Shown piece by piece: positions 17,614 through 43,324 of a stretch of DNA of 64,000 bases; position 1 is the first letter of the stretch, and each line of letters begins with the position of its first letter. The position numbers and the translations under genes are program-made. The notes under the pieces were generated by a model. The model had not been told where the DNA came from. It saw only the letters and a list, made by a program, of their open reading frames with translations, and ran no database searches. Source of the stretch: Flavobacteriales bacterium (GTDB taxonomy: Bacteria; Bacteroidota; Bacteroidia; CAIKAF01); contig JANWWP010000066.1 in assembly GCA_025055575.1 (NCBI GenBank), positions 4,332 through 68,331 on the forward strand, written 5' to 3'.

Positions 17614-17630
17614 CGGAAGAAATCGGCTGC

Positions 17631-19570: not shown

Positions 19571-19654
19571 ATCTTAAAAAATACTAAGATTTCAGGCAAC
19601 TATTCGTTAAAAAGAGGTCTACTAAAAAAGGTAAGACAAAGGATTACTATTTAA

Positions 19655-20830
19655 TTGTCACATTTTTGGGTCTTGGAAAATTCTGAAAAAAAGAAAATTT
19701 GGCTTTCCTCACCGCACATGTCTGGCTACGAGGAAGCCTATATTAAGGAAGCGTTTGCATCGAATTGGATCGCACCCTTGGGTCCGCATGTGGATGCTTT
19801 TGAAAAAGCGCTGTGTTCTTATACTGGAGCTCGGCATGCCGCAGCCTTATCCTCCGGTACGGCAGCTTTGCATTTGGCTTTAATGCTGTGCAATGTGCAG
19901 CGGGGGGATGAAGTGATTTGCCAGTCTTTTACCTTTTCAGCTTCCGCCAATCCCATTGTTTATCAGGGGGCAACTCCGGTATTTGTGGACAGTGAGGAAG
20001 ACACTTGGAATATGGACCCCCAACTGTTGGAAGAAGCCCTGAAAGATCGACTGGCACGCGGTAAAAAAATAAAAGCGGTCATCGCAGTGCATTTGTACGG
20101 CATGCCGGCAAAATTGAATGAAATTAAAGCGCTGTGCGAAAGGTTTGAAGTACCTTTAATTGAAGATGCGGCTGAGGCTCTGGGTAGTCAATACCGAGGT
20201 CGTGCATGCGGCACTTTTGGTCGTTTTGGGATTCTCTCCTTCAATGGCAATAAAATAATCACCACCTCTGGGGGCGGTGCCCTATTGGGCGAAGAGGCTC
20301 AAGCCATCGAAAAAGCCCGGTTTTTGGCTACACAGGCACGCGATCCCGCACCCCACTATCAGCATTCACATATCGGATATAACTATCGACTTAGCAATGT
20401 GTTGGCTGGAATAGGAAGAGGTCAAATGCAAGTGTTGGATGAACGCGTCGCTCAAAGACGTAGAAACTTCGATAGATATGTGCGGATTTTCTCTGGTTTT
20501 CCGGGTATTGATTTCCAACCGGAAAGTCCAGATAATTTTTCCAACCGCTGGCTCACTTGTATCCTGATAAATCCTGAGTTGGCAGGTTTTGACAGAGAAA
20601 AATTGAGGTTGGCTCTGGAAAATGAAAACATTGAAAGCCGTCCTTTGTGGAAACCCATGCACTTGCAACCGGTGTTTAAAGATGCGCCTGCCTATGGCGG
20701 CAGCGTCTGTGCCCGTTTATTTCAGGATGGATTGTGTCTTCCTTCCGGCTCCAATCTGAGCCCGCAAGATTGGGAAAGAATTGAAGAGACGCTGTATTCT
20801 GTTCTAGAATCTAATACGGTCTCACGATAA
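19655..20830 (+). CDS. DegT/DnrJ/EryC1/StrS-family PLP-dependent sugar aminotransferase (PglE/WbpE-like, nucleotide-sugar 4-aminotransferase)
   Basis: N-terminus LSSPHMSGYEEAYIKEAFASNWIAPLGPHVDAFEKAL closely resembles PglE-type enzymes. PLP lysine in SFNGNKIITT. Confidence 0.85.
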   Translation: MSHFWVLENSEKKKIWLSSPHMSGYEEAYIKEAFASNWIAPLGPHVDAFEKALCSYTGARHAAALSSGTAALHLALMLCNVQRGDEVICQSFTFSASANPIVYQGATPVFVDSEEDTWNMDPQLLEEALKDRLARGKKIKAVIAVHLYGMPAKLNEIKALCERFEVPLIEDAAEALGSQYRGRACGTFGRFGILSFNGNKIITTSGGGALLGEEAQAIEKARFLATQARDPAPHYQHSHIGYNYRLSNVLAGIGRGQMQVLDERVAQRRRNFDRYVRIFSGFPGIDFQPESPDNFSNRWLTCILINPELAGFDREKLRLALENENIESRPLWKPMHLQPVFKDAPAYGGSVCARLFQDGLCLPSGSNLSPQDWERIEETLYSVLESNTVSR

Positions 20831-28639: not shown

Positions 28640-31459
28640 TTACTTTTCTGGTTTCAAAACAAACAAAGCTTCGTGGGTGTCGTTAAAATATTTCTGGGAC
28701 CATTCCTGTAATTTTTTGATTGTCAAGGCATCTAGCCAAGTATTGTAAGCGGTGAAATCAAAGAAAGGTTTTTGATAGAGGGCCATTCTGAAAAGTTGAC
28801 CTGCCCACCATTCGTTGGTTTTTTGATCGGTTTCCAGCTCACGACGTAAGGTTTCCCGCACTTTTTGAAGATAGGAAGCCTCCGTGCCTTTTTCCTTCAC
28901 TTCGCGTACCACGCGGCGCGTTTCAGATACAAGCTCCTCCACTCTCTGTGGATCACAACTAAATTCGATCTCAGATTCAAAATGGGGCTCCGGCCATGGG
29001 GCCACGACAGTGCGGCACCGCACATAATAAACACCGCCCTTGTCTTCCCTCAGAACTTCGCGAAGCCTGATGGCCATCAGACTTGCGGCCGCCTTGGCCT
29101 CCCAAGCGCTTTCATCCGAAAATTCCGAAGCGCCATGGATTTTGAAAACCACCTGAGATTTGGGATCCAGGCCTTTGTTAAGGATATATGAATATTTGCC
29201 CTTCACAGGACGATCGCCGCGGTCCACCCAGTTTTCCCTCTGCCTCGATGCCGGCAGGGAAGCTATGTAGGTCGTCACCAGGTCCTGACATATTTCCTCG
29301 TCCAGACTTCCCACAATGATGAAGGCAAAATCGCCGGGATTGGCCAGCCGCTCCTTCATGATGGCCCGGGCCCGCTCCGGATTAACTGAATTCAGCTTCT
29401 CCGCTATAGGCCTCAGGTAGCGCGGGTGGCGGTTGTGGTACAAAAAATTCACACTGTCATTGAATACCACTTCGGGGTTGTTCACCATCAAGGCCAGCGC
29501 CGTTTTTTCTTTTTCCAAAGCCAAGCGCACTCCATTGTCGTCCATCCGGGGATTTTGGAAGTACAAGTACACCATTTGAAACAAGGTTTCAATGTCGCCT
29601 TTTGCGCTTTCTCCGTTCAAAGTTTCGTAATATTTTTCCACAGAGAACGACAGGTTCAGATTTTTGCCCTTCATCATTTTCTCAAGAGTGGAAGCGTCAA
29701 AGGGGCCCAGGCCGCTCTCCCGCATCATGGCATCCACCATTTCGGCATGTATCAAATCTTGGTCCTCATATATAGAGGTGCCCCCTCGGCTCACAGCCCG
29801 GAACAGGATCTGATCATTTTTGAAATGGGTGGGCTTAAAATAAACCCGCGCCCCATTGGCCAGGATAAATTCACGGATATCTGTGTCCGGTAAGGTTCGG
29901 GTCATGCGCACGGCGCCTTTTTGAGGTTTTTGGTCCAGAAGGCTCTCCGCAACCCGCACTTCCGAGAGGGGCTCCGGACTGGAAGACAGGGCTTTTTCAA
30001 AAGCCTGGCGAAAATCCTCTTCTTTAGGCGGTATTTCACCTTCTTTTTCAGCCCCCATGGAAATGATCTTAGGAAAAGCCAGCCGGCTTATATATTCCGG
30101 CAAAAGGGCTTTCACATCGGCCATGGAGAGTTCAGAAAGAAGGCGCTTTTTCTTTTCGTATTCTGCCTCAGGGGCCGGAAAAGGCTGATCCTGAAGAAAA
30201 TGACCCACCAGGCGCATGGCCAGTTTGTCGGATTCCCGCTTATCCCGCTCGTTGTATTCTGTTTCGGCTTGTTTTAAAAGATCGGCTTTTTGACGGTCCA
30301 ATTCAGCCTGGGTGAAGCCATGAAGTTGCACGCGGCGCAATTCGGTGGCCAGCCATTCGGTGGCAAGAACATCCTGACCCGGCTTGGGCACCACCACCCC
30401 AAAAAAGGCACTGTTGTTCCGAAGAAAATCAAAAGCCCCCGCAAAACCAAACAGATAGGGGCTTTCAGGCTTTTTAGCCAGATCCGAGAGCCGTTCGTTC
30501 AACATACCGTTGATCAGGTCTGTGGTGAGCTTCCGCTTGTAATCAGCCTCTGTTTTAAAGGGCTTTTTTTCCAGCATATAAATCAATTGCACGGCGTTGA
30601 ACATGGCTTCGGGATCACGCACCACGGCCACTTGAAGACGGTCGTTGGCAGGCACCTTGTAAGACTCACGACGCCGCGGTACGGACGGCTTGGACAGGGT
30701 TGAAAAGTGCTTTTTGATTTTACCTTCCATATCGGAGGGGTTAACATCCCCCACCACCATCACGGCCATCAGGTCCGGCCGATACCAATCGCGGTAGAAC
30801 CGCCGGAGCACCTCATGCTTAAAACTTTCTAAAATGTCTTTTTTTCCGATGGGCAGACGATCGCCATAGCGCGTGCCTCCAAATATCACAGGCCAGTATT
30901 TCTGCCGCATACGCTCCTCAGCGCCCTGCCCCAACCGCCATTCTTCCACCACCACGCCGCGCTCCTTCTCTACTTCCTCCGGATCGAACGCCAGTCCCCC
31001 AGCCCAGTCGGCCAGGATTTCAAGCGCTTTGTCCACCACGCCGGCGCTGTCGGTGGGCACCTGCAGCATGTACACGGTTTCGTCAAAACTGGTAAATGCA
31101 TTCAAATGGGGTCCAAACTTGGTGCCCACGCTTTCAAGAAAGTTCACCAATTCGTTTTTCTGGAAACGGCGGGTTCCATTAAATGCCATGTGTTCACAAA
31201 AGTGGGCCAAACCTTGTTGGTCGTCATCTTCCTGGCAGGAGCCCGCGTTTACCGCCAGGCGCATTTCCACCCGTTTTTCGGGCTTGCTGTTACGAAGAAT
31301 GTAATATTTAAGTCCATTGGGAAGGACACCGGTGCGGACGGCAGGGTCCAATGTGAAAAAAGGCGGATTAGAGGCCTTTTGGCACCAACTCTTGCCCGTC
31401 CAAAAAAACAAAAAAATGGGAAGGACCCTTAAAAGGTATGGCCTGAAATAAGTGTACAT
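28640..31459 (-). CDS. M16-family (pitrilysin/insulinase-like) zinc peptidase, single-chain two-domain, secreted
   Basis: Inverted zinc motif HFCEHMAFNGT (HxxEH), signal peptide, about 940 aa. Confidence 0.8.
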   Translation of the reverse strand: MYTYFRPYLLRVLPIFLFFWTGKSWCQKASNPPFFTLDPAVRTGVLPNGLKYYILRNSKPEKRVEMRLAVNAGSCQEDDDQQGLAHFCEHMAFNGTRRFQKNELVNFLESVGTKFGPHLNAFTSFDETVYMLQVPTDSAGVVDKALEILADWAGGLAFDPEEVEKERGVVVEEWRLGQGAEERMRQKYWPVIFGGTRYGDRLPIGKKDILESFKHEVLRRFYRDWYRPDLMAVMVVGDVNPSDMEGKIKKHFSTLSKPSVPRRRESYKVPANDRLQVAVVRDPEAMFNAVQLIYMLEKKPFKTEADYKRKLTTDLINGMLNERLSDLAKKPESPYLFGFAGAFDFLRNNSAFFGVVVPKPGQDVLATEWLATELRRVQLHGFTQAELDRQKADLLKQAETEYNERDKRESDKLAMRLVGHFLQDQPFPAPEAEYEKKKRLLSELSMADVKALLPEYISRLAFPKIISMGAEKEGEIPPKEEDFRQAFEKALSSSPEPLSEVRVAESLLDQKPQKGAVRMTRTLPDTDIREFILANGARVYFKPTHFKNDQILFRAVSRGGTSIYEDQDLIHAEMVDAMMRESGLGPFDASTLEKMMKGKNLNLSFSVEKYYETLNGESAKGDIETLFQMVYLYFQNPRMDDNGVRLALEKEKTALALMVNNPEVVFNDSVNFLYHNRHPRYLRPIAEKLNSVNPERARAIMKERLANPGDFAFIIVGSLDEEICQDLVTTYIASLPASRQRENWVDRGDRPVKGKYSYILNKGLDPKSQVVFKIHGASEFSDESAWEAKAAASLMAIRLREVLREDKGGVYYVRCRTVVAPWPEPHFESEIEFSCDPQRVEELVSETRRVVREVKEKGTEASYLQKVRETLRRELETDQKTNEWWAGQLFRMALYQKPFFDFTAYNTWLDALTIKKLQEWSQKYFNDTHEALFVLKPEK

Positions 31460-31842
31460 GACTTTAGAGGCGTGATTAGATTTCGGCCCCTAAAGTACGT
31501 CCAGAATAAAAAATTGTTCGGAAGAAAATTTTGATTTATTGAAATAGAAACTTTTAAATAAACTTTCCCTGATTTTAGAAGACTTTCTGATATTGGGTTG
31601 AGTCATTAGGATTTAAACCCAAGCCGCCTTGTGAACAATTAAATTTTCATTGAATAATTTATAAAAACTTATATATTTGAATCGCTAAAATTATTGTTTT
31701 TTTATTGAATTCCATAAAATCTAAACCCAAATATTAGGCTAAAACTGTCTTTGGAACCGCGGGTGAGAAAATCATGTTATTGCCAGTTAAACAAGCAGAA
31801 TTAAAAATAAATATAATACGGCAAAAGAATCACCAATACTTA

Positions 31843-32325
31843 CTAAGGAGCATCCATAAATTCTGCTTCGATGGAAGATTCGCCGCACTTATTGGTACCT
31901 TTCATTCCGATATTATCTGGACGATCATTAAACCGGCCAATCTTTAAAAAGAAATTATTGCGACACCAGGAAAAGTTGGACGGTAAATAATCGCTGGAGC
32001 GCACACCATTATCGGAAAATTCAATTCGGTTATCGCTGGGGTAAACATTCCCTTTGACATTAGTAGTACGACGATAATCCCTGGAATCCAATCTAAAAGT
32101 TTCTTCTAAAATACCTGTAAATGAGTTGTCATCATAGACCTTCACCCCGTATAACTTATACTGAAGGTAACCATACCCTCCTTCTAAAATACTTGCAGAA
32201 AATCTGCCGCCCCCATACCAAGTGCGTTCCAAAACTTCTTTCACGCTTTGGGCATGAACTACTAAAAGGTCAATAGAAAAACAGATGATGAAAACAAAAA
32301 AATTAATCAAATATTTTTTTATCAT
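31843..32325 (-). CDS. Hypothetical small secreted protein (160 aa), low GC
   Basis: Signal peptide MIKKYLINFFVFIICFSIDLLVVHA. Lies directly downstream of the large tail-fibre-like gene. AT-rich codon usage, unlike its neighbours. Confidence 0.4.
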   Translation of the reverse strand: MIKKYLINFFVFIICFSIDLLVVHAQSVKEVLERTWYGGGRFSASILEGGYGYLQYKLYGVKVYDDNSFTGILEETFRLDSRDYRRTTNVKGNVYPSDNRIEFSDNGVRSSDYLPSNFSWCRNNFFLKIGRFNDRPDNIGMKGTNKCGESSIEAEFMDAP

Positions 32326-32370
32326 TTTACAAAGATGCCAAAAATCTTTTATAAAAATTCAAAATATGGG

Positions 32371-35300
32371 TTACTCATGAGCGGATACGTTACCGGAAGC
32401 ATTAAAGATCCAAGACCTAAGCTGGCTGTTTTCTTGTTTTAATTGCTTTAATTCTTGCTCTAACTGAAGGACCAATTTTTCGAGATATTCCTGTTTTTGA
32501 GCTGCCTTTTGGCTTCTCTCGTTCAAGGCTTGAATGCCTAAAAGAGCCACCCCGGCCACATCAGAAGCCGCCAGAGAATGAGAGGCTCCCGGTGCGTTTT
32601 GAACCCCTGTATGAAAGGCAGAGAAGAAATCTTCGGCATAGGGCCCGATGTGATATTCATCAGATTCTTTATAAAACCAACCTTCCACTTTTAGTTGGGA
32701 TATTTTTTGAAGCACTTCGTCCGGAACCAAGGCCGTGAATCTGTCTTTTTTGCCGCGCGTGGAAACGTTTGTCCAGACTCCGCCAGCTGAAAGATAGGCG
32801 CCATTTCCATTGCTGCTGTTCGTACCCACATGGATGGGGTGGTCCCCATCGAAACGATTGACCACCAAAAAGCCGGATGGGCTGCCTGATCCGCTTCCAA
32901 AAAAGTACACGCGATGGGTTTCAGTAACAGTGGGGGAAACGTTTTGTCCAAAAACAAGATTGAAAGAAGCATTTGCCGTATTACCAATTCCGCCCAGAAC
33001 CGTGCTGTAACCACCTGATACTACGTTATCCTGCCCTCCAATAACAGAGCCATAAGAAGCGGAGCTATAGATGGCGTTATTTGTGCCACCGGCTATGGTA
33101 CCACCAGAGGCTAAAACCGAATTATTGTCACCGCCTCCCACTGTGGCATAATCATTGTCAATCTGGTTATTAGACCCACCTGAAATGGTGCCTGTGGTCC
33201 ACCCCTCATTAATGACATTATTGTATCCACCCGAAATTACGTGGTAATAGTCCGTCCCTCCGCTGCCTCCAATTTGATTGAACGCACCGCCGCCGATACA
33301 TGAATAATATCCGTTCACGGAATTATTTGCTCCCCCTGCAACCACTGAACCTTCATAATTTACGAAATTGGCGTTACCCCCGCCTATGAAACCATAATCT
33401 GATCCAACAAGATTACCCTGGCCCCCTGAAACCGCACCATACTGCGAAATCACTTGGTTATCGGAGCCACCCCCAATAAATCCATAAGGCCCTCCGGAAT
33501 TGATGCTGTTATTAATGCCTCCAAATAGGGCAGAACCATATGAATTGGCGTCATTAGAATAGCCACCCCCGATGGAGGCGAACTGTCCAGCTACAGTGTT
33601 TGTAGACCCTCCCAACAATGCGCTTGAGTTTCCAGTAGCACTATTTAATATGCCTCCAGCAATCACCGAGTAAGTGCCGCTGGCAGAATTATTTGCCCCC
33701 CCGCCGATGGATGAAGTATTCCCTGTGGCAAAGTTGGAAGATCCCCCAGCCACCGTGGCCGTTGTGTTGGAAGCCTGATTTTGAAATCCTCCTGCCACCA
33801 CGGAAGCCCCTCCCGTAGCCTGATTCTGGTATCCACCTCCCACTGCGCTGTATATGGCGGCACTCGAATTGCCTTGACCTCCTCCAATGAAGCTGTTGTC
33901 GCCTGAACTGGTGTTGTTAAGGCCTCCGGCCACCACCGCGTCGGCTCCACTGGCCGTGTTGCGCCGGCCACCAGAAATGACCGCGTGATTCCCGGATGCC
34001 ACTTGTGTGGCTGACATTCGATCTATTTGCCAATCCACTGCCCTAAGACCCCGTGGATTCCCACCGAGGTCCCTTTGGATGCTCCAGGCCGGAGCAGAAA
34101 ATCCCGGAGGATTCAAAATCAGTGAATTTTGGTTTTGGACACGCAACTGGAGGGGTTGATTGTCCAGCGTTCCCACAAATGCCGCCGTGCCAGATTGAAG
34201 ACCAATATTACCATTCACGACGAGGCGTTCACTGGGACTTGTGGTATTTATACCCACATTCCCCCCGCTTGTCACACGGAGTCTTTCACTATTATTGGTT
34301 CTGACAACCAGCGGATTGGCATCCGTGGTTCCCAGAAAATTCGTGGTAGGATCGGTTCCACCATTCCCATTCAGCAGCCAACCACTTCCACCGCCTCCCA
34401 GAACCGAAGGGTCTAACCAGGACAAATTGCCACTGCCATCCGTCTGAAGAATTCCAGCGGAAGGCGTAGTTACCGGAGACAATGTAGAAGGCCAAGTGTA
34501 GGTGATGTTTGAAGTTTGACTTTGGGCCCTGAAAGCTGTGTACTCAGCGCTGCCGCTGGCATTGGAGGTGGGTTCATAAAAACGCAATTCCCGGGCTGTG
34601 TTGTCTCGGTTGTAGAGCCAAAGATTAACGTCTACGAAGGCTGCAATATTAGAGAATGAACTTAAGTTGGTGGAAGTTGGAGTAATCTGTCCACTATAGC
34701 CAAAACTATAACTTCCAAGAGTGAGCCTTTGTCCTCCAGCGATAGCACTGTATGCTCCTGAAGCAGAATTGTGCGCGCCACCGCATACAACACTGGTGTT
34801 TCCAGAAGTCTGATTGTTGCTGCCTCCCCCTATAAAACTGTGGTTGCCAGGGGCCTGGTTACCGCCTCCCCCAGAAATTGTGGAAGCATATCCATTGGCC
34901 ACATTCACGCCCCCACCTCCTACTGTTGCATATTCACTACTGGCAACATTGGACCTACCGCCGGCAACCGTGGTGTAGTAATGCGAACTTTTATTGTATA
35001 TGCCCCCGCCGATGACACTCGCATATCCGCTAGCCACTTCGTCCAGGTTCGCTCTGGCACTTTGCAAATCCACAGCATGCTCCCCTCTTGTGTTTCCCGT
35101 ACCGCGTTGAATACTCCAGTTGCCTGGTGAAGTACCGGGTACATTCATTCGAAACACCTCGGTGTTGTTGGCGCGGAATACAATTGGTTGATTATCAGTA
35201 GTTCCTATAAAATTTGTGGCCGGATTCGTACCGCTGTTACCCGTTAGGTTCCAAAAGTTGCTATTAGTCCACACAGGAGTGCCCGCTCCACCTATCGTCA

Positions 35301-36153
35301 GAATTTGATTTGCCGTACCTGGAGCCAACCAGGTGGGGGGCAGGGAAGCGCCTGAAGAAAGGAGCAAACTACCGTTTAATCCGGCAGAGTTGTTAGGCAT
35401 GAAAGCATTATCAAGGCGAAGATTTCCGCTCACATGAAGACGCTCTGTCGGAGTGGAGGTACCCACCCCAACGTTACCTGAGGCTGAAATCCTTAAACGT
35501 TCGTTACTATTGGTTGAAAAAGCCAACTCATTGGCAGCGGCCCTGTACATACCCATGCTGGTCGTAGAGTTAAATCGAAAGGCAGGGACAGAAGCCGTCC
35601 CGTCGTTGGCAATAAATCCACTCTCGGCCCGCACCCCCCCAGCCACATGCAACTTATGACTGGGGGATCCGGTGACTCCAATCCCCACAGAACCCGAGCC
35701 TGTAAACCGAAAATCAAAACCAGCCTGGGCAATATCTGTGTTTTGAAGAAGCGTACCGCCCAGCTGAATATGGCTACCCGTCATTGTGAGCCCATTGTCG
35801 GCCGTCACGTTGGCTACACCATTTTGAAGCCGAGTCCATTGAGTGCCATTCCAATAATAAAATCCAGGCGTCACATTCGTCGGAGGAGTGCCCGCCGTGG
35901 CGGTATTGTAAACCAAAAGGCCTGTAGCGCAACAGCTCACCACGGTTGTGTTGTCCAAAGTTCCTGTGAGAGCAAGCCTTGGAACCAACACACCACGATT
36001 CCCCGCCTTGATATCTAACTGAGCGCTGGCATCCGGAGAGGATCCGTCCGTATTTATACCCACATTTTGACCCAAGAGGCCAAAGGGCAAAGTTATCAAC
36101 AAACCACTGTAAAAAATTTTATTCAAAGTGTAGTTATTATTTTTTATTTTCAT
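32371..36153 (-). CDS. Surface fibre protein with phage-tail-fibre-like architecture: signal peptide, long Gly-rich YadA-head / Hep_Hag-like repeats, C-terminal peptidase-S74 intramolecular-chaperone domain and coiled coil
   Basis: Repeats of the form NxASGxYSxIgGGxxNxAsGxxSxVaGG across aa ~370-1000. C-terminus STRGKKDRF...IGPYAEDF...SDVAGVALLGIQALNERSQ...LEQELKQLKQENSQL matches the S74 auto-cleaving chaperone domain of phage endosialidase / L-shaped tail fibres. Confidence 0.65.
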   Translation of the reverse strand: MKIKNNNYTLNKIFYSGLLITLPFGLLGQNVGINTDGSSPDASAQLDIKAGNRGVLVPRLALTGTLDNTTVVSCCATGLLVYNTATAGTPPTNVTPGFYYWNGTQWTRLQNGVANVTADNGLTMTGSHIQLGGTLLQNTDIAQAGFDFRFTGSGSVGIGVTGSPSHKLHVAGGVRAESGFIANDGTASVPAFRFNSTTSMGMYRAAANELAFSTNSNERLRISASGNVGVGTSTPTERLHVSGNLRLDNAFMPNNSAGLNGSLLLSSGASLPPTWLAPGTANQILTIGGAGTPVWTNSNFWNLTGNSGTNPATNFIGTTDNQPIVFRANNTEVFRMNVPGTSPGNWSIQRGTGNTRGEHAVDLQSARANLDEVASGYASVIGGGIYNKSSHYYTTVAGGRSNVASSEYATVGGGGVNVANGYASTISGGGGNQAPGNHSFIGGGSNNQTSGNTSVVCGGAHNSASGAYSAIAGGQRLTLGSYSFGYSGQITPTSTNLSSFSNIAAFVDVNLWLYNRDNTARELRFYEPTSNASGSAEYTAFRAQSQTSNITYTWPSTLSPVTTPSAGILQTDGSGNLSWLDPSVLGGGGSGWLLNGNGGTDPTTNFLGTTDANPLVVRTNNSERLRVTSGGNVGINTTSPSERLVVNGNIGLQSGTAAFVGTLDNQPLQLRVQNQNSLILNPPGFSAPAWSIQRDLGGNPRGLRAVDWQIDRMSATQVASGNHAVISGGRRNTASGADAVVAGGLNNTSSGDNSFIGGGQGNSSAAIYSAVGGGYQNQATGGASVVAGGFQNQASNTTATVAGGSSNFATGNTSSIGGGANNSASGTYSVIAGGILNSATGNSSALLGGSTNTVAGQFASIGGGYSNDANSYGSALFGGINNSINSGGPYGFIGGGSDNQVISQYGAVSGGQGNLVGSDYGFIGGGNANFVNYEGSVVAGGANNSVNGYYSCIGGGAFNQIGGSGGTDYYHVISGGYNNVINEGWTTGTISGGSNNQIDNDYATVGGGDNNSVLASGGTIAGGTNNAIYSSASYGSVIGGQDNVVSGGYSTVLGGIGNTANASFNLVFGQNVSPTVTETHRVYFFGSGSGSPSGFLVVNRFDGDHPIHVGTNSSNGNGAYLSAGGVWTNVSTRGKKDRFTALVPDEVLQKISQLKVEGWFYKESDEYHIGPYAEDFFSAFHTGVQNAPGASHSLAASDVAGVALLGIQALNERSQKAAQKQEYLEKLVLQLEQELKQLKQENSQLRSWIFNASGNVSAHE

Positions 36154-36358
36154 GTATTAATTGTTTTGGTTTAATGTTCACAAATTTAATAAATTAAATA
36201 CCCAGAAGTATTCATTTTGTTTTTTTTAACTATGTAATAATGCCAAAAGATCAAACTTTAGCATTTGTTTATTTTTTTCAAACAATAGTTATGTTTATAT
36301 TGTAACAAAAAATTTGAATAAAAACTTGATTTTAAATAATTTATTATTTATTTGAAAA

Positions 36359-36373
36359 TTATTTTGCCATCCC
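36359..36373 (+). promoter_or_regulatory. TTATTTTGCCATCCC motif (Bacteroidetes -7-like TAnnTTTG variant) about 70 nt upstream of the hotdog/GT2 operon
   Basis: The identical 15-mer recurs 13 nt upstream of panB at 43627..43641. Confidence 0.3.
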
Positions 36374-36442
36374 CTATCGTATTTCCACCCGAGTTATACC
36401 CCGAGAATAATTAATTATTTACTTTAGCCACGTAGATCCACG

Positions 36443-36850
36443 ATGAGTTTTAATTTAGTTACGTATATTAAGGAAACTGAAACTTTGTTCCAAATTAAGG
36501 CTGAAAGAAACTTGCATGGCACATCGTGGCAATGGGAAGTGCATGTGTCCAGCAGCCATCCCATTCTGGCCGCTCATTTCCCCGGACTGCCTGTAGTGCC
36601 GGGCATCATGCAACTGCATCTGGTGCGCCGGGCTGCAGAACATGTATTAAAAAAATCTCTGGCTTGGGAAGGTCTTCAGAAAGCCAAGTTTTTTAATCCC
36701 TGGACGCCGTCCCAAGCCCCAGTTGCCTTGCTCATGCTTTCCATCCAGGAAGGGCCGGACAAAACCACCGGACGCTGGCGCGTGGATGCCCGGATTGCCC
36801 ACGGGGAAATGGCCATTTTGCAGGTAAAAGGACAACTGCGCGCATGCTAG
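36443..36850 (+). CDS. FabZ/FabA-like hotdog-fold (3R)-hydroxyacyl-ACP dehydratase-family protein
   Basis: HFPGLPVVPGIMQLHL matches the FabZ active-site region HFPGxPVxPGVL. Confidence 0.6.
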   Translation: MSFNLVTYIKETETLFQIKAERNLHGTSWQWEVHVSSSHPILAAHFPGLPVVPGIMQLHLVRRAAEHVLKKSLAWEGLQKAKFFNPWTPSQAPVALLMLSIQEGPDKTTGRWRVDARIAHGEMAILQVKGQLRAC

Positions 36851-38070
36851 TCCCTGAGGAAAAAGCTGAAATCATTCGGCTAAGCCGGCAATTCCGGGTG
36901 TGTTGCGTGGTACCGTTTTTCAACAACCGACAGCATGTCACTCAAGTTCTAAAGCAGCTCCTGGCTCTGGGCTTTCCGGTGATTGCTGTGAGCGATGGCA
37001 GCACCGATGGTTCTGCAGAGGAAGTTCAGCCATTGAATCTTCGCGCCTTTCTGAAATATTCCCCCAACCGCGGAAAAGGCTATGCCTTGCGCCTGGCCTT
37101 CCAGAAATCTCTGGAACTTGGCTACGCATATGCCATCACGGTGGATGCGGACGGGCAGCATGTCCCTTCCGAAGCGCTGGCGCTTCTGAAAGCGCTGGAG
37201 GCCCACCCGGGTGCCCTGGTGGTGGGAGCGCGCCGCATGGAAGGAAAGGAGCAGTCCCAAGCCGCCGGATTTGCCAATCGCTTTTCCAACTTCTGGTTTG
37301 GCGTGCATGCCCTCCAAAGGCTTTCCGATACCCAAAGCGGCTTCAGGCTGTATCCGCTGAGAGCTGTGACAGGCTTGCGCCTGATGGGCCGACGTTATGA
37401 ATTTGAAGTGGAAGTCCTTGTGAAAGCGGCCTGGCGGGGCATTAAAATTGTGGAAACCCCGGTAGATGTCTGCTACCCGCCCCGGTCCGAACGGGTGAGT
37501 TTTTTCAGGCCCGGCTGGGATTTTTTCCGTATTTCCCTCATGAATACCTACCTCACGTTGGGGGCCCTGCTTTACGGACACTGGGTCATTCTGGCCCGGA
37601 GGTTGTCTTGGAAAAGTCTGACCAGCTTCCTGCGCCGTCATGTTTTCAGCCGCGAGGAACCTGTGTGGAAAAAAGCCGCCAGCATTGGCCTGGGGGTGTG
37701 CATGGGCATCGTGCCTGTGTGGGGTTGGCAAATGCTGTCGGCCGGTATTTTAGCCCACATGCTGAAATTAAATAAAGGTTTGGCCGTTATCAGCTCCAAC
37801 ATCTCCATGCCGCCCATGTTACCTTTTATTATTTGGGGAAGTGTGGAAACCGGCGCCCTTTTCTTTCCTCCAGAACGGCGGTTCAAACCTCGTTGGGAAT
37901 ACCTGCAAGCCGATCCCTGGCAAGCCTTAGGAGCGGGAGGTATGCAATATGTCCTGGGCGCTGTGGCACTGGGTATCCTGGCCGGTCTTGCGGCTTTTGT
38001 TATTTCTTTGCCCCTACTTCATTTAGTCCGCCAGAAGAATTGGAAGAAACAAGTCCCGCCCTCCGCCTAA
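36844..38070 (+). CDS. GT2 polyprenyl-phosphate glycosyltransferase (GtrB/ArnC/DPM1-like) fused to a C-terminal DUF2062-like membrane domain
   Basis: VVPFFNN...SDGSTDGS, NRGKGYAL, ITVDADGQH and DTQSGFRLYP motifs. C-terminal TM helices. 7-nt overlap with the hotdog gene. Confidence 0.7.
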   Translation: MLVPEEKAEIIRLSRQFRVCCVVPFFNNRQHVTQVLKQLLALGFPVIAVSDGSTDGSAEEVQPLNLRAFLKYSPNRGKGYALRLAFQKSLELGYAYAITVDADGQHVPSEALALLKALEAHPGALVVGARRMEGKEQSQAAGFANRFSNFWFGVHALQRLSDTQSGFRLYPLRAVTGLRLMGRRYEFEVEVLVKAAWRGIKIVETPVDVCYPPRSERVSFFRPGWDFFRISLMNTYLTLGALLYGHWVILARRLSWKSLTSFLRRHVFSREEPVWKKAASIGLGVCMGIVPVWGWQMLSAGILAHMLKLNKGLAVISSNISMPPMLPFIIWGSVETGALFFPPERRFKPRWEYLQADPWQALGAGGMQYVLGAVALGILAGLAAFVISLPLLHLVRQKNWKKQVPPSA

Positions 38071-38087
38071 GAAACCTTCTCCGGCAC

Positions 38088-40589
38088 TTGTCCAGCCCGC
38101 ACCTGCTATCACTTGCGGCTGGGGTTGTTGCCTTTGCATTTCCAATTTTAAAAGGTTGGATGCAAGCGCCGGCTTACAAAGTGAGCGGCCATGTGATAAA
38201 CGAAAAAACCGGCGAGCCTGTGGCATTTGCCAATATTGTCTTTAAAGGCACCCTCATCGGCACCGTAACAGATACCGCCGGCTTTTTCAAGTTGGAAGCC
38301 CGAAAGCCCCATGACAGCCTGAAGATTTCCGCCGTCGGTTTTAAAAGCCGGACCGTGGCGGCCCGCTTTGACGGCAAACCTTTGTGGATACAACTGACTC
38401 CGGCTACCATCGAAATCGGACCCGTGGTCGTGAAAGCCGGCGAGAATCCTGCGTTTCGCATCCTGCGCCGGGTCCATGAACGAAAGCCCTATCACAGCCT
38501 CGAAGGCCTGGACTACTTCCAGTATGAGGTGTACAATAAAATGGAATTTGATATCCATGATTTTAATAAAAAACTCACGCGGAATTTTTTACTCAAACCT
38601 ATTGACTTCATCTTTGAAAATGTGGACACCACACAGGAAGGTAAAGCCATGCTTCCTGTTTTTATCTCTGAAACCATTTCGGATTTCTATTTCCGGCGCG
38701 AACCCAAAGCCGCCCGGGAATACATCCGGGGCAGTAAATTCAGTGGAGTACAAAACCCCAAGCTCGTTCAGATTCTGGGGCAAATGGGTTTCCAGGTGGA
38801 CATTTACAAAGACTTTAATGTGATTTTCAACAAGAATTTTCCCAGCCCCCTCAATCCAGCCCTCAATTTGTATTACCGATATTACCTGGACGACAGCCTC
38901 CATGTGGAAGGACGTCTGACATACCTCATCAACTTTAAACCCCGCAACGACCGCGATATTGGCTTTGAAGGCACCTTACTGATAGATGCCGAGGATTACG
39001 CCGTCAAAGATGTGGACATGCGCTTCTCTGAAAAAGGGAATGTCAACTTTGTCCGCGCCTTTCGGATCAAGCAGGTATTCGAACGTATAGACAGCGCCGG
39101 CCGCTGGTTTTTATCCAAAAATGCCATCATCGCCGATCTTACTGTCTTAGAAAAGGAAAAAAACCTGATGGGTGTGCTGGCCCGCCGCACCACCACCTAC
39201 CGCAAAATCACTCTGAACCAGCCCGCGGAAGCGCGATTTTATGGTGGTGTGGATGATGTGGTTGTGCTGGAAGGCGCCGACCAGAGGGATGATCAATTCT
39301 GGCGTGAAGTGCGCCATGAGGCTTTGGTGAAGCGCGAAGAAAATATTTATAAAATGGTGGATAGCCTGAATAAAAACAAATATTTTAAGTTTTTAAAGGA
39401 ATCGGTGCGGGTTTTAGGTTCAGGCTATGCGCGGGTGGGTAAATTCGACATTGGCAACATCCACACATTTGTCAGCTGGAACCCTTCAGAAGGCTGGCGC
39501 GGCAAGATCGGCGCCCGCACCAACCGTTTTCTGAGCAAATATGTGGAAGGCAACGGCTGGCTGGCTTACGGCTTTCGCGACCGCACGGTGAAATACGGGG
39601 CCGAATTTGTGTACTTCCCATTGAGCATGTTCCGCCGCCGGCACAACGTTGGCGCCTCCTACAAATTTGATATGGAGCAGATTGGCCTCAGCAACAACGC
39701 TCTTTCGGTGGATCACTTTATGACGGCCCTCTTTCGCACCGGCCCGTTTGACCGGCTCACCCTCACACGCGAAGGTATCCTGTGGTACGAACACAATTGG
39801 TTTGCAGGGTTCGTGACGCGTCTTTCCTTTATTTACCGCGACGTGGCGCCGCGGGGCACTTTCCGCTTCCAAACCCTGGATGCCCATGGCGACCTGGCTG
39901 AGTTTCCCAGCCTCCAAAATGCCGAATTGCGCTTCAACCTGCGCTTTGCTTTCCGCGAACGGGTGCTCAGCAGCGATTTCAGACGCCGGGTTTTCATCAA
40001 CAAATATCCCGTTGTGGCCGCCGAGGTGGGCAAAGGATTCTCGGGCATTTTAAACAGCGACTTTGACTTCCTGCGTGCCAAACTTCAAATCAACCACAGA
40101 CTGCGCATCGGCAAACTGGGCTTCATTGATTATATGCTGGAAGGCGGTCGCACCTGGGGCCGGGTACCCTATTACATGATGGAAATCCACACCGCCAATC
40201 AGAACATCGTGAATGACGAAGCGGCCTTTAACCTCATGAAATTCTACGAATTCGTGAGCGACCGCTATTTGGCTTTTTACATGGAAAACCACTTCGAAGG
40301 TTTTTTCTTTAACCGGATTCCGGGAATCCGAAAGCTCAAATGGCGTGAATTTTTAGTGAACAAAATCCTGATCGGCTACATGGATCCTCAAAACCGCAAC
40401 TATCCTCTGCTTTACCCCGCGGGTCTCAACAGTTTGAACCCCCGCCTTCCCTACTGGGAAACCGGCTTTGGGTTGGAAAATATTTTCAAAATCCTACGGA
40501 TTGATTTTCTCTGGCGCGTCACCTACCGCACGAGCAACCGCTTTGATTACGGCTGGTCCATCAAGCCTTCTCTCTATTTGAGATTTTAA
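38088..40589 (+). CDS. Large secreted protein with an N-terminal carboxypeptidase-regulatory-like (CarbopepD_reg) domain and a ~700-aa beta-rich domain (DUF5686-like). Start uncertain.
   Basis: VSGHVINEKTGEPVAFANIVFKGTLIGTVTDTAGFFKLE is a typical CarbopepD_reg fold. The track ORF start at 37833 overlaps the GT2 gene by 240 nt. An in-frame TTG at 38088 gives a signal peptide, and the first ATG is at 38160. Confidence 0.5.
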   Translation: MSSPHLLSLAAGVVAFAFPILKGWMQAPAYKVSGHVINEKTGEPVAFANIVFKGTLIGTVTDTAGFFKLEARKPHDSLKISAVGFKSRTVAARFDGKPLWIQLTPATIEIGPVVVKAGENPAFRILRRVHERKPYHSLEGLDYFQYEVYNKMEFDIHDFNKKLTRNFLLKPIDFIFENVDTTQEGKAMLPVFISETISDFYFRREPKAAREYIRGSKFSGVQNPKLVQILGQMGFQVDIYKDFNVIFNKNFPSPLNPALNLYYRYYLDDSLHVEGRLTYLINFKPRNDRDIGFEGTLLIDAEDYAVKDVDMRFSEKGNVNFVRAFRIKQVFERIDSAGRWFLSKNAIIADLTVLEKEKNLMGVLARRTTTYRKITLNQPAEARFYGGVDDVVVLEGADQRDDQFWREVRHEALVKREENIYKMVDSLNKNKYFKFLKESVRVLGSGYARVGKFDIGNIHTFVSWNPSEGWRGKIGARTNRFLSKYVEGNGWLAYGFRDRTVKYGAEFVYFPLSMFRRRHNVGASYKFDMEQIGLSNNALSVDHFMTALFRTGPFDRLTLTREGILWYEHNWFAGFVTRLSFIYRDVAPRGTFRFQTLDAHGDLAEFPSLQNAELRFNLRFAFRERVLSSDFRRRVFINKYPVVAAEVGKGFSGILNSDFDFLRAKLQINHRLRIGKLGFIDYMLEGGRTWGRVPYYMMEIHTANQNIVNDEAAFNLMKFYEFVSDRYLAFYMENHFEGFFFNRIPGIRKLKWREFLVNKILIGYMDPQNRNYPLLYPAGLNSLNPRLPYWETGFGLENIFKILRIDFLWRVTYRTSNRFDYGWSIKPSLYLRF

Positions 40590-40654: not shown

Positions 40655-43324
40655 TCATCTTTGAATGACAAATCTCTGTCTGGCCGCTCCTTTATCATAT
40701 ACATATTCCAACCAATACACGCCCGGGGCAAAGTGTTCGCAAGGCAGAACGAGAGAAGTTGTGCCCGCTGGCAGGATCATCCGATGCACGCGGCGGCCCT
40801 GAGCATCTGTCAAATGTAAAGCAGCCGACTGCGAACTTTCCGGTAAGTCCCGTATCATCACATGAAGTGTGGCTGGATTGGGATACATTAAAAAGCCCGG
40901 GGCATAGGACGGTGCATCCAGTGCAACGGAGGACTGGGCATATACGGTGGTGGCTGTGTTGGTGCGGATAGGCAGATTGTAGTCAAAATAGATATCGGCA
41001 AAGTTGCCCACCACTTCATTTAAGGACCAGGTGGGCACGTGTTGGATCCGAAATTTAACAAATCCGCAGGAACCGATGGGGTCACTGGCGCTGTCGGGCA
41101 GCATGATGTTGTCAAAGCGGAACTCGAGGATGTGGCCGTCCCGAAAAGTCCAATCCATCGGCTGGTGGCTGGAACTGATGATTTGAATGGTTTGGGGAAG
41201 CAGGAGAGACGATAAGGTGTCGCGCAGGAGCACAGTGTGAGCCGGCGCATTACCTACATTTTGGAAATGAATGGTATATGTGAGAAACGAAGGCGGATTC
41301 ACGGACCACAAAGTGTCTTTGTCCACTTCCTTATAGTTGGGATCGTAAGGGCCCACCACAGTAAGATTGGCCACCGAAACATTATCGGCCGGCTGATTGT
41401 CATTGGCTTGCGGATACACCTGAGCTGTGGCCGCGACAGGCGCTCCGAGCGGCGCGGAAACCGGCACCTGAAACTGCACCACCATCACCGCCGAAGCGAG
41501 TGGATTGAGGGTTCCAAGATTCCAAGTCAGCGTGTTGGCATTAAAGTAATCGAAAGGGGGCGCCGCCGTCAGAAAATTGACGAGCGGTGAAAATTCCAAA
41601 GACACAGAGGCATTCTGAGCTACGGTGCCCACATTCTGGCACGTGATCAAATAGGCCAGAACATAGCCTGGCTTTGGCAAAGTGAGGGCGGTCAGGTCCA
41701 CCCGGAGATCGTGCACGTTGCCTTGAGGCATGAGGGGAAAATCATGGCCCGACGAAATGGCTCCCAAAGCGGGAAAAGCAACCGTGTAATTAGAAGGCCC
41801 TGTGGGTGTATAGTATTGAGGCACTGTGGCCAGCGCCACACTGTGAGAACCTTGGGGAACAGGTAGATCATAAAAGCCGTTGGACCCCGAATGCGTGATG
41901 AACGCGGGATTATTATTAGCCCACACAACCACCTGGGGCAGAGCCATTTCCGTACTATCCCAAAGACCATTGCCATTGAGATCAGAATAAATCTTACCCT
42001 GAATCCTGTTGCCTTCCGGATGAATTTTAGCCACAAGCCCGACACTCACTGTGGCTGAAAGCCCCCCCAGGGTCGTATGGCCATAGGCCACGGTGCCCAC
42101 ATACAAGGCGTCCGAGGACATCGCCAGGGATTGCATCAGATGGTTGTTGGAAGCGCCGTCGGTCTGAATGACCCAGTCCGGGCTTCCGTCTGGATTGAGG
42201 CGGGCTACAAAATTTCGGTATGTTCCATTGGCGGAGAGCAGATGCGTGCCCCAAGGAAAGGAAACATTAAAATTGCCCACAACAAATACGTCCCCATTGG
42301 GTGCGCAGCGCAACTCCTTGCCTTCCTCATTGCCCGGTCCGCCCACATTATAAACCCACTCGTAGGCGCCACCGGCATTGATTTTGCCCAGCAAAATATC
42401 ATCCCCTCCAAGTCCGGTTAGCTGAATTGTATCAAATTGGGCCTGGGTATCAAAGTTTCCTGTAAAATAGAGGTTGCCTTGTGCATCGGCACTTGCGCCT
42501 ACCACTTCGCCGCTAAAAGAGGATAAGGCGCTCCACTGAAACTGTCCGGCGCCATTGAACTTGGCTATAAAATGATTATGGCCCTGCATGCTCTGGCTGC
42601 TGCCTGCATAGGAAACCGTGGCCGATGTGCTGAAACCGCAGACATACACATTGTCCCAGGCATCGCTGGCCAGGGTCCACATGGATTCAATGCCCGGCCC
42701 CCCAATAGAGGCTCCCCATAATAAAGTGCCGTTATTATCCAGCTTAATGAGAAACACCTCATAGCTTGGACCCGACATGTTAAAACTGCCATACGAAAAG
42801 TTCCCCACAAAAATTCCGGAGACATAGATCTCTCCAGCCGGATTGATCTCCAGGCCCAAACCTGAATCATTACCAGCACCACCGGCGCGGGCGGCGTACA
42901 AAACGGCGCCGCTGGCCGCGTCTAATTTTACGATAAACACATCGTTGCTGCCCAGGGAAGTGAGAGTATAGGAACCGATGGTTAAGGTTCCCTGGAAAAT
43001 ACCTAAAACCCATACGTGCCCATTATGGTCATACTCAATATCATAGACGTAATCACCTCCGGTGCCGCCCCAATTCTGAACCCATAATACCTGGCCGGCC
43101 GGGTTGCGTTTGACCACGGCCACATCTTGCTGCCCTAAAGAATTGAGGGTTTGGCCTCCAATGTTGGCCGTACCCACAAACTGTCCTGCAGCAAAGGAAT
43201 TATTCAGTATATCAGTGCACAAACGCCCGGGCGCCAAATCATCCGTCTGAAGCCATTCCGAAACCTGACCATAAGCGCATCCGAAGAGAAGATAAGAAAA
43301 AGCAAAAAAAAGATTTTTGTACAT
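40655..43324 (-). CDS. Secreted beta-propeller (SBBP-repeat) protein with a T9SS type-A C-terminal sorting domain
   Basis: Repeated YxxGxxxGxDxGxxIxxDxxGNVYVxGxF units. C-terminus ...FAPGVYWLEYVYDKGAARQRFVIQR is typical of Por_Secre_tail. Confidence 0.65.
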   Translation of the reverse strand: MYKNLFFAFSYLLFGCAYGQVSEWLQTDDLAPGRLCTDILNNSFAAGQFVGTANIGGQTLNSLGQQDVAVVKRNPAGQVLWVQNWGGTGGDYVYDIEYDHNGHVWVLGIFQGTLTIGSYTLTSLGSNDVFIVKLDAASGAVLYAARAGGAGNDSGLGLEINPAGEIYVSGIFVGNFSYGSFNMSGPSYEVFLIKLDNNGTLLWGASIGGPGIESMWTLASDAWDNVYVCGFSTSATVSYAGSSQSMQGHNHFIAKFNGAGQFQWSALSSFSGEVVGASADAQGNLYFTGNFDTQAQFDTIQLTGLGGDDILLGKINAGGAYEWVYNVGGPGNEEGKELRCAPNGDVFVVGNFNVSFPWGTHLLSANGTYRNFVARLNPDGSPDWVIQTDGASNNHLMQSLAMSSDALYVGTVAYGHTTLGGLSATVSVGLVAKIHPEGNRIQGKIYSDLNGNGLWDSTEMALPQVVVWANNNPAFITHSGSNGFYDLPVPQGSHSVALATVPQYYTPTGPSNYTVAFPALGAISSGHDFPLMPQGNVHDLRVDLTALTLPKPGYVLAYLITCQNVGTVAQNASVSLEFSPLVNFLTAAPPFDYFNANTLTWNLGTLNPLASAVMVVQFQVPVSAPLGAPVAATAQVYPQANDNQPADNVSVANLTVVGPYDPNYKEVDKDTLWSVNPPSFLTYTIHFQNVGNAPAHTVLLRDTLSSLLLPQTIQIISSSHQPMDWTFRDGHILEFRFDNIMLPDSASDPIGSCGFVKFRIQHVPTWSLNEVVGNFADIYFDYNLPIRTNTATTVYAQSSVALDAPSYAPGFLMYPNPATLHVMIRDLPESSQSAALHLTDAQGRRVHRMILPAGTTSLVLPCEHFAPGVYWLEYVYDKGAARQRFVIQR

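Follow-up and report, generated by a model that had tools for sequence, protein, structure and literature searches.

Aryl-polyene and flexirubin clusters are among the most widespread families of bacterial gene clusters, and the step assigned to ApeJ or to a DUF2062-containing glycosyltransferase is the least understood part of their biology. In the proteobacterial aryl-polyene clusters compared here, those of E. coli CFT073 and Xenorhabdus doucetiae, this step belongs to an ApeI-ApeJ system. The E. coli apeI and apeJ genes (c1196/c1194) overlap by 10 nt, with a FabZ-like hotdog protein encoded directly upstream of the GT2 glycosyltransferase, and the pair sits in an 18-gene cluster together with KS, ACP, ApeP, LolA and MMPL genes. 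The C-terminal half of E. coli ApeJ is reportedly an acyltransferase. The second system is the FlxS/FlxT type of flexirubin clusters (Chitinophaga pinensis, Flavobacterium, Chryseobacterium), where an ApeI-like hotdog gene likewise lies upstream of a gene for a GT2-DUF2062 fusion, the DUF2062 protein being gene '79' in the F. johnsoniae-based numbering. Deletion of apeJ in Xenorhabdus leads to accumulation of a lipid intermediate without GalNAc-APE, and a glycerophospholipid intermediate has been proposed as the ApeJ acceptor (bioRxiv 10.1101/2020.12.19.423268). The DUF2062 protein is listed in published flexirubin cluster maps; as flexirubin is not known to carry a sugar, what the GT2-DUF2062 protein does is not established even in canonical clusters (PMC3992019).

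Here we analyze a gene pair of this known kind in the window, by which we mean the whole 64,000-nucleotide stretch of Flavobacteriales DNA that was studied. What is new is the arrangement, a hotdog-GT2-DUF5686 unit devoid of polyketide genes (Table 1).

Organization of the locus

Table 1 Features of the hotdog-GT2-DUF5686 locus (positions within the window).
Feature	Position	Strand	Description
Hotdog ORF	36443..36850	+	135 aa; ApeI-like
GT2-DUF2062 ORF	36844..38070	+	408 aa; ApeJ/FlxT-type membrane glycosyltransferase
CarbopepD_reg/DUF5686 gene	38088..40589	+	833 aa; predicted outer-membrane protein
Hotdog/GT2 overlap	36844..36850	+	7 nt, ATGCTAG; hotdog stop and GT2 start
Divergent intergenic region	36154..36442		AT-rich, 23.5% GC; between a 1260-aa minus-strand gene and the hotdog gene

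The original prediction, made from the sequence alone, placed a 7-nt overlap between the hotdog and GT2 genes. The ORF coordinates and the positions of the hotdog stop codon (TAG, 36848-36850) and the GT2 start codon (ATG, 36844) agree with this, and the overlap, comparable to the 10 nt in E. coli, suggests translational coupling. The divergent intergenic region is presumably the promoter region of the three-gene unit. The number of sigma-70-like matches in it was not above expectation (8 versus 4.6 +/- 2.2 in shuffled sequence), and the Bacteroidetes TAnnTTTG motif was absent from it.

In contrast to the E. coli cluster, no KS, CLF, ACP, ApeP, LolA or MMPL gene was detected in the 64-kb window using Pfam and blastp with cluster seeds. 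Counted from the pair, KS, CLF, ACP, ApeP, LolA, deacetylase and MMPL genes are missing for 36 kb upstream and 26 kb downstream, and in the relatives with 97% and 68% identity the same genes are missing within 10 kb. Neither the window nor the related loci L001, L005, L006 and L089 contain LolA-like, MMPL, ammonia-lyase or AMP-ligase genes. The predicted likeness to accessory genes of aryl-polyene/flexirubin loci without KS or ACP thus holds in both parts, as homologues of the pair do sit in such clusters (see below).

The GT2-DUF2062 glycosyltransferase

The 408-aa protein matches Glycos_transf_2 (4.5e-15) and DUF2062 (7.6e-16) in Pfam, and consists of an N-terminal GT-A (GT2) domain (aa ~1-220) and, C-terminal to it, the helical DUF2062 membrane domain (aa ~225-405), whose hydrophobic segments lie at aa 285-330 and 361-392. 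As predicted, it carries DADGQH, DTQSGFR and the DUF2062 fusion, and among 81 homologues the residues D101, D103, Q105, H106, D162-G166 and R168 are invariant. The best NCBIfam matches are AglJ and PpgS. The GT2 domain is 30% identical to the GT domain of E. coli ApeJ (E 3e-31), and the likeness extends past the GT-A domain; ApeJ is, however, a protein of 558 aa with no DUF2062 match in its C-terminal half. The flexirubin FlxT-type proteins share the complete GT2 and DUF2062 architecture at 37-43% identity.

An AF2 model of the protein (pLDDT 93.7) predicts the DUF2062 helical bundle with high confidence, and a Foldseek search with the model placed ArnC, DPMS and GtrB on top (E 1e-10 to 3e-8). 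DPMS (5mlz), GtrB (5ekp) and ArnC (9asc, 9bhc) are the best matches in sequence and fold among solved structures, albeit at only 15-20% identity, and share with the window protein the GT-A fold, the DxDxQ(H) motif, the D..SGF acceptor-side motif and membrane anchoring; DADGQH aligns with DADLQH of DPMS. In sequence and predicted fold the GT2 domain therefore resembles polyprenyl-phosphate glycosyltransferases, as originally claimed for the DPM1/GtrB/ArnC type. The membrane part is a larger helical bundle, these enzymes having only two to four helices at the C-terminus, and the acceptor, which in DPMS, GtrB and ArnC is polyprenyl phosphate, may here be a glycerophospholipid. Across the window clade the GT2 gene has a dN/dS of 0.11-0.12, indicating purifying selection and showing that it is not a pseudogene.

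The ApeI-like hotdog protein

A profile HMM built only from the hotdog proteins of other Bacteroidota clusters recognizes the hotdog protein with 73 bits (E 6e-21), and its best PDB match is 6qsr_A, the ApeI orthologue of an ApeI:ApeP complex (chains A and B). It is 28% identical to ApeI of E. coli CFT073. With 14.1 bits it falls below the 28.5-bit gathering threshold of the Pfam family ApeI-like (PF22818), which its relatives from L005 (29.8) and L003 (33.7) exceed. The possibility raised at the outset, that the protein is an acyl-CoA thioesterase unrelated to the GT2, does not agree with these matches to ApeI-type proteins, and a 4HBT thioesterase identity was ruled out in favor of the FabZ/ApeI type.

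The FabZ/FabA-type histidine motif (G)HFPxxPxxPG, also written HFPGxPxxPG, is kept as AHFPGLPVVPGI at aa 43-54, where it aligns with a motif that at least 80% of 59 ApeI-like proteins share. These proteins also conserve an acidic residue in the central helix; counted from PGV, it is an Asp at +4 in proteobacteria and a Glu at +8 in Bacteroidota. In the motif alignment the window protein has neither, carrying a His at +4 and an Arg at +8, and the loss of the Glu at +8 makes its catalytic competence doubtful. A Glu is found at +11 instead, and this clade-specific residue is common to the hotdog proteins of the window, L005 and L089. The hotdog protein also evolves fast, being ~40-47% identical between loci where the GT2 protein is 63-68% identical, with a dN/dS of 0.36-0.5. 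No homologue of the ApeP partner was found in the window by blastp with the cluster seeds.

The DUF5686 protein

DUF5686 proteins are, to our knowledge, unstudied, although common and strongly conserved in Bacteroidota. The third protein matches CarbopepD_reg_2 (5.4e-15) and DUF5686 (3e-57), and is composed of a signal peptide, a CarbopepD_reg domain resembling the NTE domain of SusC, a middle domain rich in beta structure and, at the C-terminus, the DUF5686 barrel. The structure prediction suggested as a check models DUF5686 as a 16-stranded barrel of the Omp85 type, making the protein a candidate outer-membrane biogenesis factor. It differs from the Omp85 superfamily (BamA, TamA, Sam50, Toc75, FhaC) in that Pfam detects only CarbopepD_reg and DUF5686, with neither POTRA domains nor an Omp85/Bac_surface_Ag match, and its periplasmic part would instead be formed by the SusC-NTE-like domain and the uncharacterized beta-rich domain.

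In homologues the signal peptide stands directly ahead of a Y[KR]V[ST]G[RH]V motif, and TTG 38088, 17 nt past the GT2 stop codon, is the only in-frame start yielding this order. Translation most likely starts there, in line with the predicted lack of an ATG at the N-terminus. A start at ATG 38160 would cut away the signal peptide. As only the maximal ORF, with its start at TTG 37833, overlaps the GT2 gene, the overlap originally claimed for these two genes could not be upheld.

Related loci

Related Bacteroidota GT2-DUF2062 loci were collected for comparison (91 loci, 71 with full flanks). In most of the 91 the gene is held in a flexirubin/APE-type cluster with KS, CLF, ACP, deacetylase, LolA and MMPL-acyltransferase genes, and many MAGs also have homologues inside such clusters. 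Within 10 kb of the GT2-DUF2062 gene, KS/CLF genes were found in 49/71 and MMPL-AT genes in 55/71 full-flank loci. The canonical order, TE-KS-ACP-KS-CLF-deacetylase-LolA-(LolB-like)-ApeI-GT2_DUF2062-MMPL/acyltransferase-...-AMP-ligase, is seen in C. pinensis, Flavobacterium, Chryseobacterium gleum and others. Co-occurrence of the pair across Bacteroidetes, a check proposed earlier, is borne out by 40 of the 91 loci having an ApeI-like hotdog gene directly upstream, with overlaps of 1-14 nt in 24 of these 40.

In the window clade (GT2 62-97% identical) hotdog-GT2-DUF5686 is kept as a three-gene unit. Where canonical flexirubin loci continue with an MMPL-acyltransferase-methyltransferase gene this clade has DUF5686, and unlike these loci it has no KS/CLF/ACP, deacetylase, LolA2/LolB2 or aryl-starter genes. 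It also branches as a sub-family of its own.

Function of the gene pair

The reading we prefer, at a probability of about 60%, is that the hotdog and GT2-DUF2062 proteins correspond in Bacteroidota to ApeI and ApeJ, that their genes have parted from the KS/CLF/ACP core, and that they serve an envelope lipid, with the other genes elsewhere in the genome. Homology, synteny, fold, conserved catalytic motifs and purifying selection are shown by the data, whereas the donor sugar, the acceptor lipid and further pathway genes elsewhere are inferred. The pair would then be of FlxS/FlxT type and part of an aryl-polyene-type pathway that attaches its product to a membrane lipid anchor. The GT2 domain, held to the inner membrane on its cytoplasmic side by the DUF2062 helices, would bind metal and nucleotide sugar at DxDxQH and pass the sugar to an acceptor lipid that carries a phosphate. 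Judging from the AglJ/PpgS matches and from the GalNAc in the APE lipid of Xenorhabdus, this sugar is probably a HexNAc donated by UDP-HexNAc. The hotdog protein, putatively co-translated with the GT2, would represent the His-bearing half of a FabZ/FabA-like dehydratase, which in proteobacteria works by pairing with ApeP in a heterodimer. The two genes seem in this lineage to have been cut loose from the KS/CLF/ACP core as a reduced sub-family with no aryl-starter or MMPL genes nearby, and their most likely role is still to serve an envelope lipid of polyene or fatty-acyl type. Lipid A and an ornithine lipid, two of the targets originally proposed, found no support in the analysis. A lineage that has the ApeI-like/GT2-DUF2062 pair alone is a genetically simpler setting in which to ask which lipid is glycosylated and whether the hotdog protein is catalytic.

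Possible, though we hold it only as a minority view, is a pair independent of dedicated polyketide machinery, where the GT2-DUF2062 protein glycosylates a phospholipid or a housekeeping carrier (polyprenyl phosphate, as for GtrB, ArnC and DPMS) and the hotdog protein either partners it in a structural or regulatory role or takes ordinary FAS acyl-ACPs as substrates. This would agree with the lack of KS and ACP genes in 64 kb, with a predicted fold closest to polyprenyl-phosphate glycosyltransferases, and with a hotdog protein under relaxed constraint and without the usual acidic residue. The window clade and its sister clades moreover form a separate branch of the GT2-DUF2062 family, with no MMPL-AT or aryl-starter genes in the retrieved flanks (<=10 kb each side), and some members of this branch (L007, L090) are bare hotdog/GT2 pairs. 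Yet in the nearest outgroup (GT2 47-51% identical; L002, L008, L091, L092) the pair is still immediately preceded by ACP-KS-CLF-deacetylase-LolA, and 22/71 full-flank loci have no KS within 10 kb yet do have other cluster genes, so that split clusters are common in the family. The keeping of a GT2-coupled ApeI-type hotdog protein is also hard to explain without an acyl-ACP-linked pathway.

It appears unlikely that all three genes act as one unit, with the DUF5686 barrel delivering the glycosylated lipid to, or inserting it in, the outer membrane in place of MMPL/LolA/LolB-type export genes. The triple stays together amid three different sets of flanking genes (window/L001, L005/L006, and L089), with GT2 and DUF5686 on the same strand and only the 17-nt gap between them. 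Distant DUF5686 genes (27-29% identity) abut a GT2_DUF2062-MMPL module in two other arrangements, upstream on the same strand in L072 and convergent in L019/L021, and in L093 the DUF5686 gene adjoins a homologue of a flexirubin-cluster oxidoreductase. On the other hand, 0/80 metagenome DUF5686 loci had any APE-type gene nearby, and in the L007 genome the DUF5686 orthologue lies ~120 kb from the pair; with DUF5686 usually unlinked to APE-type genes elsewhere, a link to the pair is only putative, and looser than their adjacency would imply. LolA2/LolB2-type carriers are already part of canonical clusters, and the conservation of DUF5686 (87%), far above that of GT2 (67%) and hotdog (~40%), fits a housekeeping protein of the outer membrane that has a separate function. 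We give slightly less credence still to a self-contained envelope module, in which a lipid glycosylated at the inner membrane would be handed to the POTRA-less Omp85-like barrel for outer-membrane insertion; if true, this widespread uncharacterized Bacteroidota family would take part in the biogenesis of lipids instead of proteins.

That the pair is a decaying, functionless remnant of a lost flexirubin/APE cluster, as the absent cluster core and the fast-evolving, sub-threshold hotdog protein could indicate, is very improbable, since both ORFs are intact in five loci (GT2 62-97% identical), the GT2 dN/dS is about 0.12 with all catalytic residues invariant, and the 7-nt coupling overlap is preserved in the window, L001, L005 and L006.

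Layout of the three genes

Three open reading frames lie where the original prediction had placed them, with the stop codon of the hotdog gene 7 nt inside the GT2-DUF2062 gene (hereafter GT2), and the DADGQH and DTQSGFR motifs are both found in the GT2 protein. The predicted overlap of the third gene with GT2 holds only for the maximal ORF, which starts at TTG 37833 and runs into GT2. Homologues of the third protein open with a signal peptide that directly precedes Y[KR]V[ST]G[RH]V, the conserved start of the CarbopepD_reg domain, and TTG 38088 is the one start in the window that yields a signal peptide of this type (LSSPHLLSLAAGVVAFAFPILKGWMQA). We therefore take TTG 38088 as the likely start, 17 nt past the GT2 stop, which makes the three genes a tight same-strand array. 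Upstream of the array is a 289-bp region with 23.5% GC, where no Bacteroidetes -7 motif was found in the promoter scan, and matches in the promoter and terminator scans did not exceed shuffle expectation.

Features of the window and of related loci
Feature	Locus	Coordinates	Strand	Remarks
Nucleotide-sugar cluster	window	15512-22788		GDP-mannose 4,6-dehydratase, two epimerase/reductases, 2-hydroxyacid dehydrogenase, DegT-type aminotransferase, Polysacc_synt_2 dehydratase
160-aa secreted protein	window	31843-32325	-	no family match
1260-aa secreted protein	window	32371-36153	-	Gly/Ser/Asn-rich, repetitive; coiled-coil tail at end
Hotdog	window	36443-36850	+	135 aa
GT2-DUF2062	window	36844-38070	+	408 aa; start ATG; Pfam Glycos_transf_2 and DUF2062
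DUF5686 protein	window	38088-40589	+	likely start TTG; Pfam CarbopepD_reg_2 and DUF5686
T9SS-sorted protein	window	40655-43324	-	889 aa
Fatty-acid desaturase	window	59562-60623	-	adjoins Ppx/GppA
T9SS-sorted protein region	L001	13816-16530		several short called genes
Antibiotic_NAT-family gene	L007	11227-12141		aminoglycoside 3-N-acetyltransferase-like; overlaps GT2-DUF2062
Antibiotic_NAT-family gene	L090	11181-12146		as in L007
Phytoene-desaturase-like oxidoreductase	L093	7800-9308
ApeJ	L095 (E. coli ape locus)	31213-32889	-	558 aa

The pair in aryl-polyene/flexirubin clusters

The GT2-DUF2062 architecture is matched more than 4,000 times in Bacteroidota at E <1e-10. Neighbourhoods of homologues were collected by exact-sequence look-ups and by scanning a single genome for each species, the scan giving 80 named loci, and the cluster gene families were mapped across loci by blastp and HMMs built in this analysis. 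Canonical loci run thioesterase-KS-(unknown)-ACP-KS-CLF-polysaccharide deacetylase-LolA-(LolB-like)-ApeI-like hotdog, followed by GT2_DUF2062-MMPL/acyltransferase/methyltransferase-oxidoreductase-Ntn hydrolase-AMP ligase, the gene order of a flexirubin/aryl-polyene-type cluster; it is present in Chitinophaga pinensis, several Flavobacterium species and Chryseobacterium gleum, among others. KS/CLF genes are found no more than 10 kb from GT2 in 49 of the 71 loci with full flanks, and the MMPL-acyltransferase in 55. The pair is indeed conserved together elsewhere, an ApeI-like ORF adjoining GT2 in 40 of 91 Bacteroidota loci; most of these neighbours overlap by 1-14 nt.

Published flexirubin cluster maps list a “DUF2062 domain-containing protein” and an adjoining dehydratase, and Schoner et al. 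placed the glycosyltransferase among putative export genes acting “by yet unknown mechanisms” (PMC3992019). The layout of the proteobacterial prototype, in E. coli CFT073, is like that of the window pair, with apeI (117 aa) and apeJ overlapping by 10 nt. E. coli ApeJ ends in ~320 residues that had no Pfam match at E 0.01 and are termed an acyltransferase in the literature, whereas Bacteroidota carry the acyltransferase domain as a fusion with the MMPL exporter. It is clear from homology and shared synteny that the pair represents ApeI/ApeJ-type genes, a known kind, and that its likening to aryl-polyene/flexirubin accessory genes was essentially right; the predicted gene layout, apart from the overlap of the third gene, was likewise confirmed in the window.

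A reduced sub-family

What is new is that in a reduced sub-family the pair stands alone, without the cluster core, and has DUF5686 as its partner gene. The predicted absence of KS and ACP genes extends to the whole 64-kb window, where Pfam and blastp searches found none of the other cluster families (KS, CLF, ACP, deacetylase, LolA, MMPL etc.). The order hotdog-GT2-DUF5686 is shared by the window, L001 (97% GT2 identity), L005/L006 (68%) and L089 (62%), which together provide three unrelated flanking contexts. Two loci (L007 and L090, GT2 identity 49-51%) have the bare pair followed by an Antibiotic_NAT-family gene, and in four (L002, L008, L091 and L092, 46-50%) a mini-cluster of ACP-KS-CLF-deacetylase-LolA-(LolB-like) is directly upstream of the pair, with no MMPL or aryl-starter genes at these four loci. 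Since the three groups form one branch in a neighbour-joining tree, sister to all canonical clusters, we assign the window pair to a reduced sub-family. The gene 3' of the pair varies by clade, being MMPL-acyltransferase, DUF5686, NAT or a CHU_C/PKD protein.

We consider it probable (roughly 0.6) that the pair provides a detached lipid-anchor glycosylation step in an aryl-polyene-like envelope lipid pathway whose other genes are located elsewhere in the genome. The main rival, that the pair functions independently of any dedicated ketosynthase genes, is favoured by the lack of such genes in the window but is rather unlikely in our judgement. The family as a whole often has its clusters split, with KS missing within 10 kb in 22 of the 71 full-flank loci.

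In the mini-cluster clade the ACP-KS-CLF genes are flanked by a desaturase. A KS mini-cluster beside the fatty-acid desaturase of the window was ruled out, as this gene is followed by a TP_methylase-family methyltransferase gene; a desaturase next to Ppx/GppA is seen in L093 too.

The DUF5686 protein

The model of the DUF5686 protein (pLDDT 81.3) consists of a signal helix, a CarbopepD_reg sandwich matching the SusC NTE domain, a beta-rich middle domain and, at the C-terminus, a barrel, and Foldseek agrees with this domain reading. The barrel is predicted from the model to be Omp85-like, the most unexpected by-product of our analysis, but unlike Omp85 the protein has neither a POTRA domain nor an Omp85 sequence match. 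A LolA/LolB-like middle domain was ruled out, as the hhalign probabilities for LolA2 and LolB2-like alignments were at most 0.5%. A DUF5686 family member has been detected in Tannerella outer-membrane vesicles, and we found no functional study of DUF5686 in the literature.

A functional tie between DUF5686 and the pair appears improbable. In its favour, the triple is kept despite three different flanking contexts, distant DUF5686 genes adjoin a GT2-MMPL module at L072 and, in a different arrangement, at L019/L021, and in L093 DUF5686 is near, and divergent from, a homologue (36% identity) of the flexirubin-cluster oxidoreductase. However, none of the 80 metagenome DUF5686 loci among the matches listed, all at 39% identity or less, has an APE-type neighbour, which weakens the idea of a three-gene module. 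Furthermore, the DUF5686 orthologue in the L007 genome is ~120 kb from the pair, the far stronger conservation of DUF5686 would suit a separate housekeeping function, and canonical clusters already contain LolA2/LolB2-type carriers.

The phytoene-desaturase-like oxidoreductase, 36% identical to the one after MMPL-AT in flexirubin clusters, lies directly and divergently beside DUF5686 in three further loci (L105, L106 and L114), while in L093 a minus-strand Leu/Phe-tRNA protein transferase gene is situated between the two.

The hotdog protein

The hotdog protein matched Pfam FabA and PKS_DH_N weakly and scored 14.1 bits against Pfam ApeI-like, missing the cut-off of 28.5, and a word-indexed search returned a 92% relative as its sole match. 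Against an HMM made solely from the hotdogs of other Bacteroidota clusters it scored 73 bits (E 6e-21), and it is 28% identical to E. coli ApeI. Its top solved-structure match is 6qsr_A; one chain of 6qsr matches ApeI of E. coli (E 4e-40) and the other matches ApeP (E 2e-47), and the entry is thus an ApeI:ApeP heterocomplex. On the cluster-HMM score, homology and synteny we file the protein as ApeI-like despite the sub-threshold score in curated Pfam.

The FabZ-type histidine (AHFPG) is kept. The Asp at +4 after PGV of proteobacterial ApeI is missing, and so is the Glu at +8 that at least 80% of the sequences have in an alignment of 59 ApeI-like hotdogs, drawn almost entirely from Bacteroidota; the hotdogs of the window clade have a Glu at +11 instead. 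The original prediction named an acyl-CoA thioesterase unrelated to GT2 as a finding that would undo it; a 4HBT-type acyl-CoA thioesterase was ruled out by the FabZ His motif and by top matches to ApeI and FabZ.

The glycosyltransferase

Residues D101, D103, Q105, H106, D162-G166 and R168 are invariant in 81 homologues, and the GT domain is 30% identical to E. coli ApeJ over residues 13-242 (E 3e-31). Its closest solved relatives are dolichyl-phosphate mannose synthase (DPMS), GtrB and ArnC, with DADGQH and SDTQSGF aligned to DADLQH and KDPVSGF of DPMS. The AlphaFold model (pLDDT 93.7, pTM 0.83) shows a GT-A domain and, from ~residue 225, a helical bundle, and Foldseek placed ArnC, DPMS and GtrB on top. 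In NCBIfam the top matches were AglJ and PpgS, a polyprenyl-phospho-GalNAc synthase. The Xenorhabdus aryl-polyene lipid contains GalNAc, and apeJ deletion there leads to build-up of a lipid intermediate without it (bioRxiv 10.1101/2020.12.19.423268). Taken together, these likenesses and the apeJ phenotype suggest that the protein would act at the inner membrane, transferring a sugar, probably HexNAc, from a nucleotide-sugar onto an acceptor of phospholipid type.

In canonical Bacteroidota clusters GT2 is accompanied by a NodB-type deacetylase and an acyltransferase, suggesting that glycosylation is followed there by de-N-acetylation and N-acylation; neither gene was found in the window. Lipid A or an ornithine lipid, earlier proposed as substrate, was dismissed because no neighbour or homology supports it, LpxK being 19 kb away in an unrelated context. 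The nucleotide-sugar cluster 14 kb upstream of the pair might be a source of an amino-sugar donor.

Selection

Between the window and L005, where synonymous sites are saturated, dN/dS was 0.04 for DUF5686 (87% amino acid identity), 0.12 for GT2 (67%) and 0.36 for the hotdog (39% global, 46% local). Elsewhere in the family, where GT2 is 60-70% identical, the hotdogs are typically 52-60% identical, which places the window-branch hotdog among the faster-evolving ones.

Neighbouring secreted proteins

The gene for the 1260-aa protein is divergent from the hotdog gene and is followed by that for the 160-aa protein; the near-identical L001 copy of the 1260-aa protein has a PTL_trimer match. In L001, a 97%-identical Logan contig, the gene for the T9SS-sorted protein is broken up, which could reflect either an assembly error or pseudogenisation.
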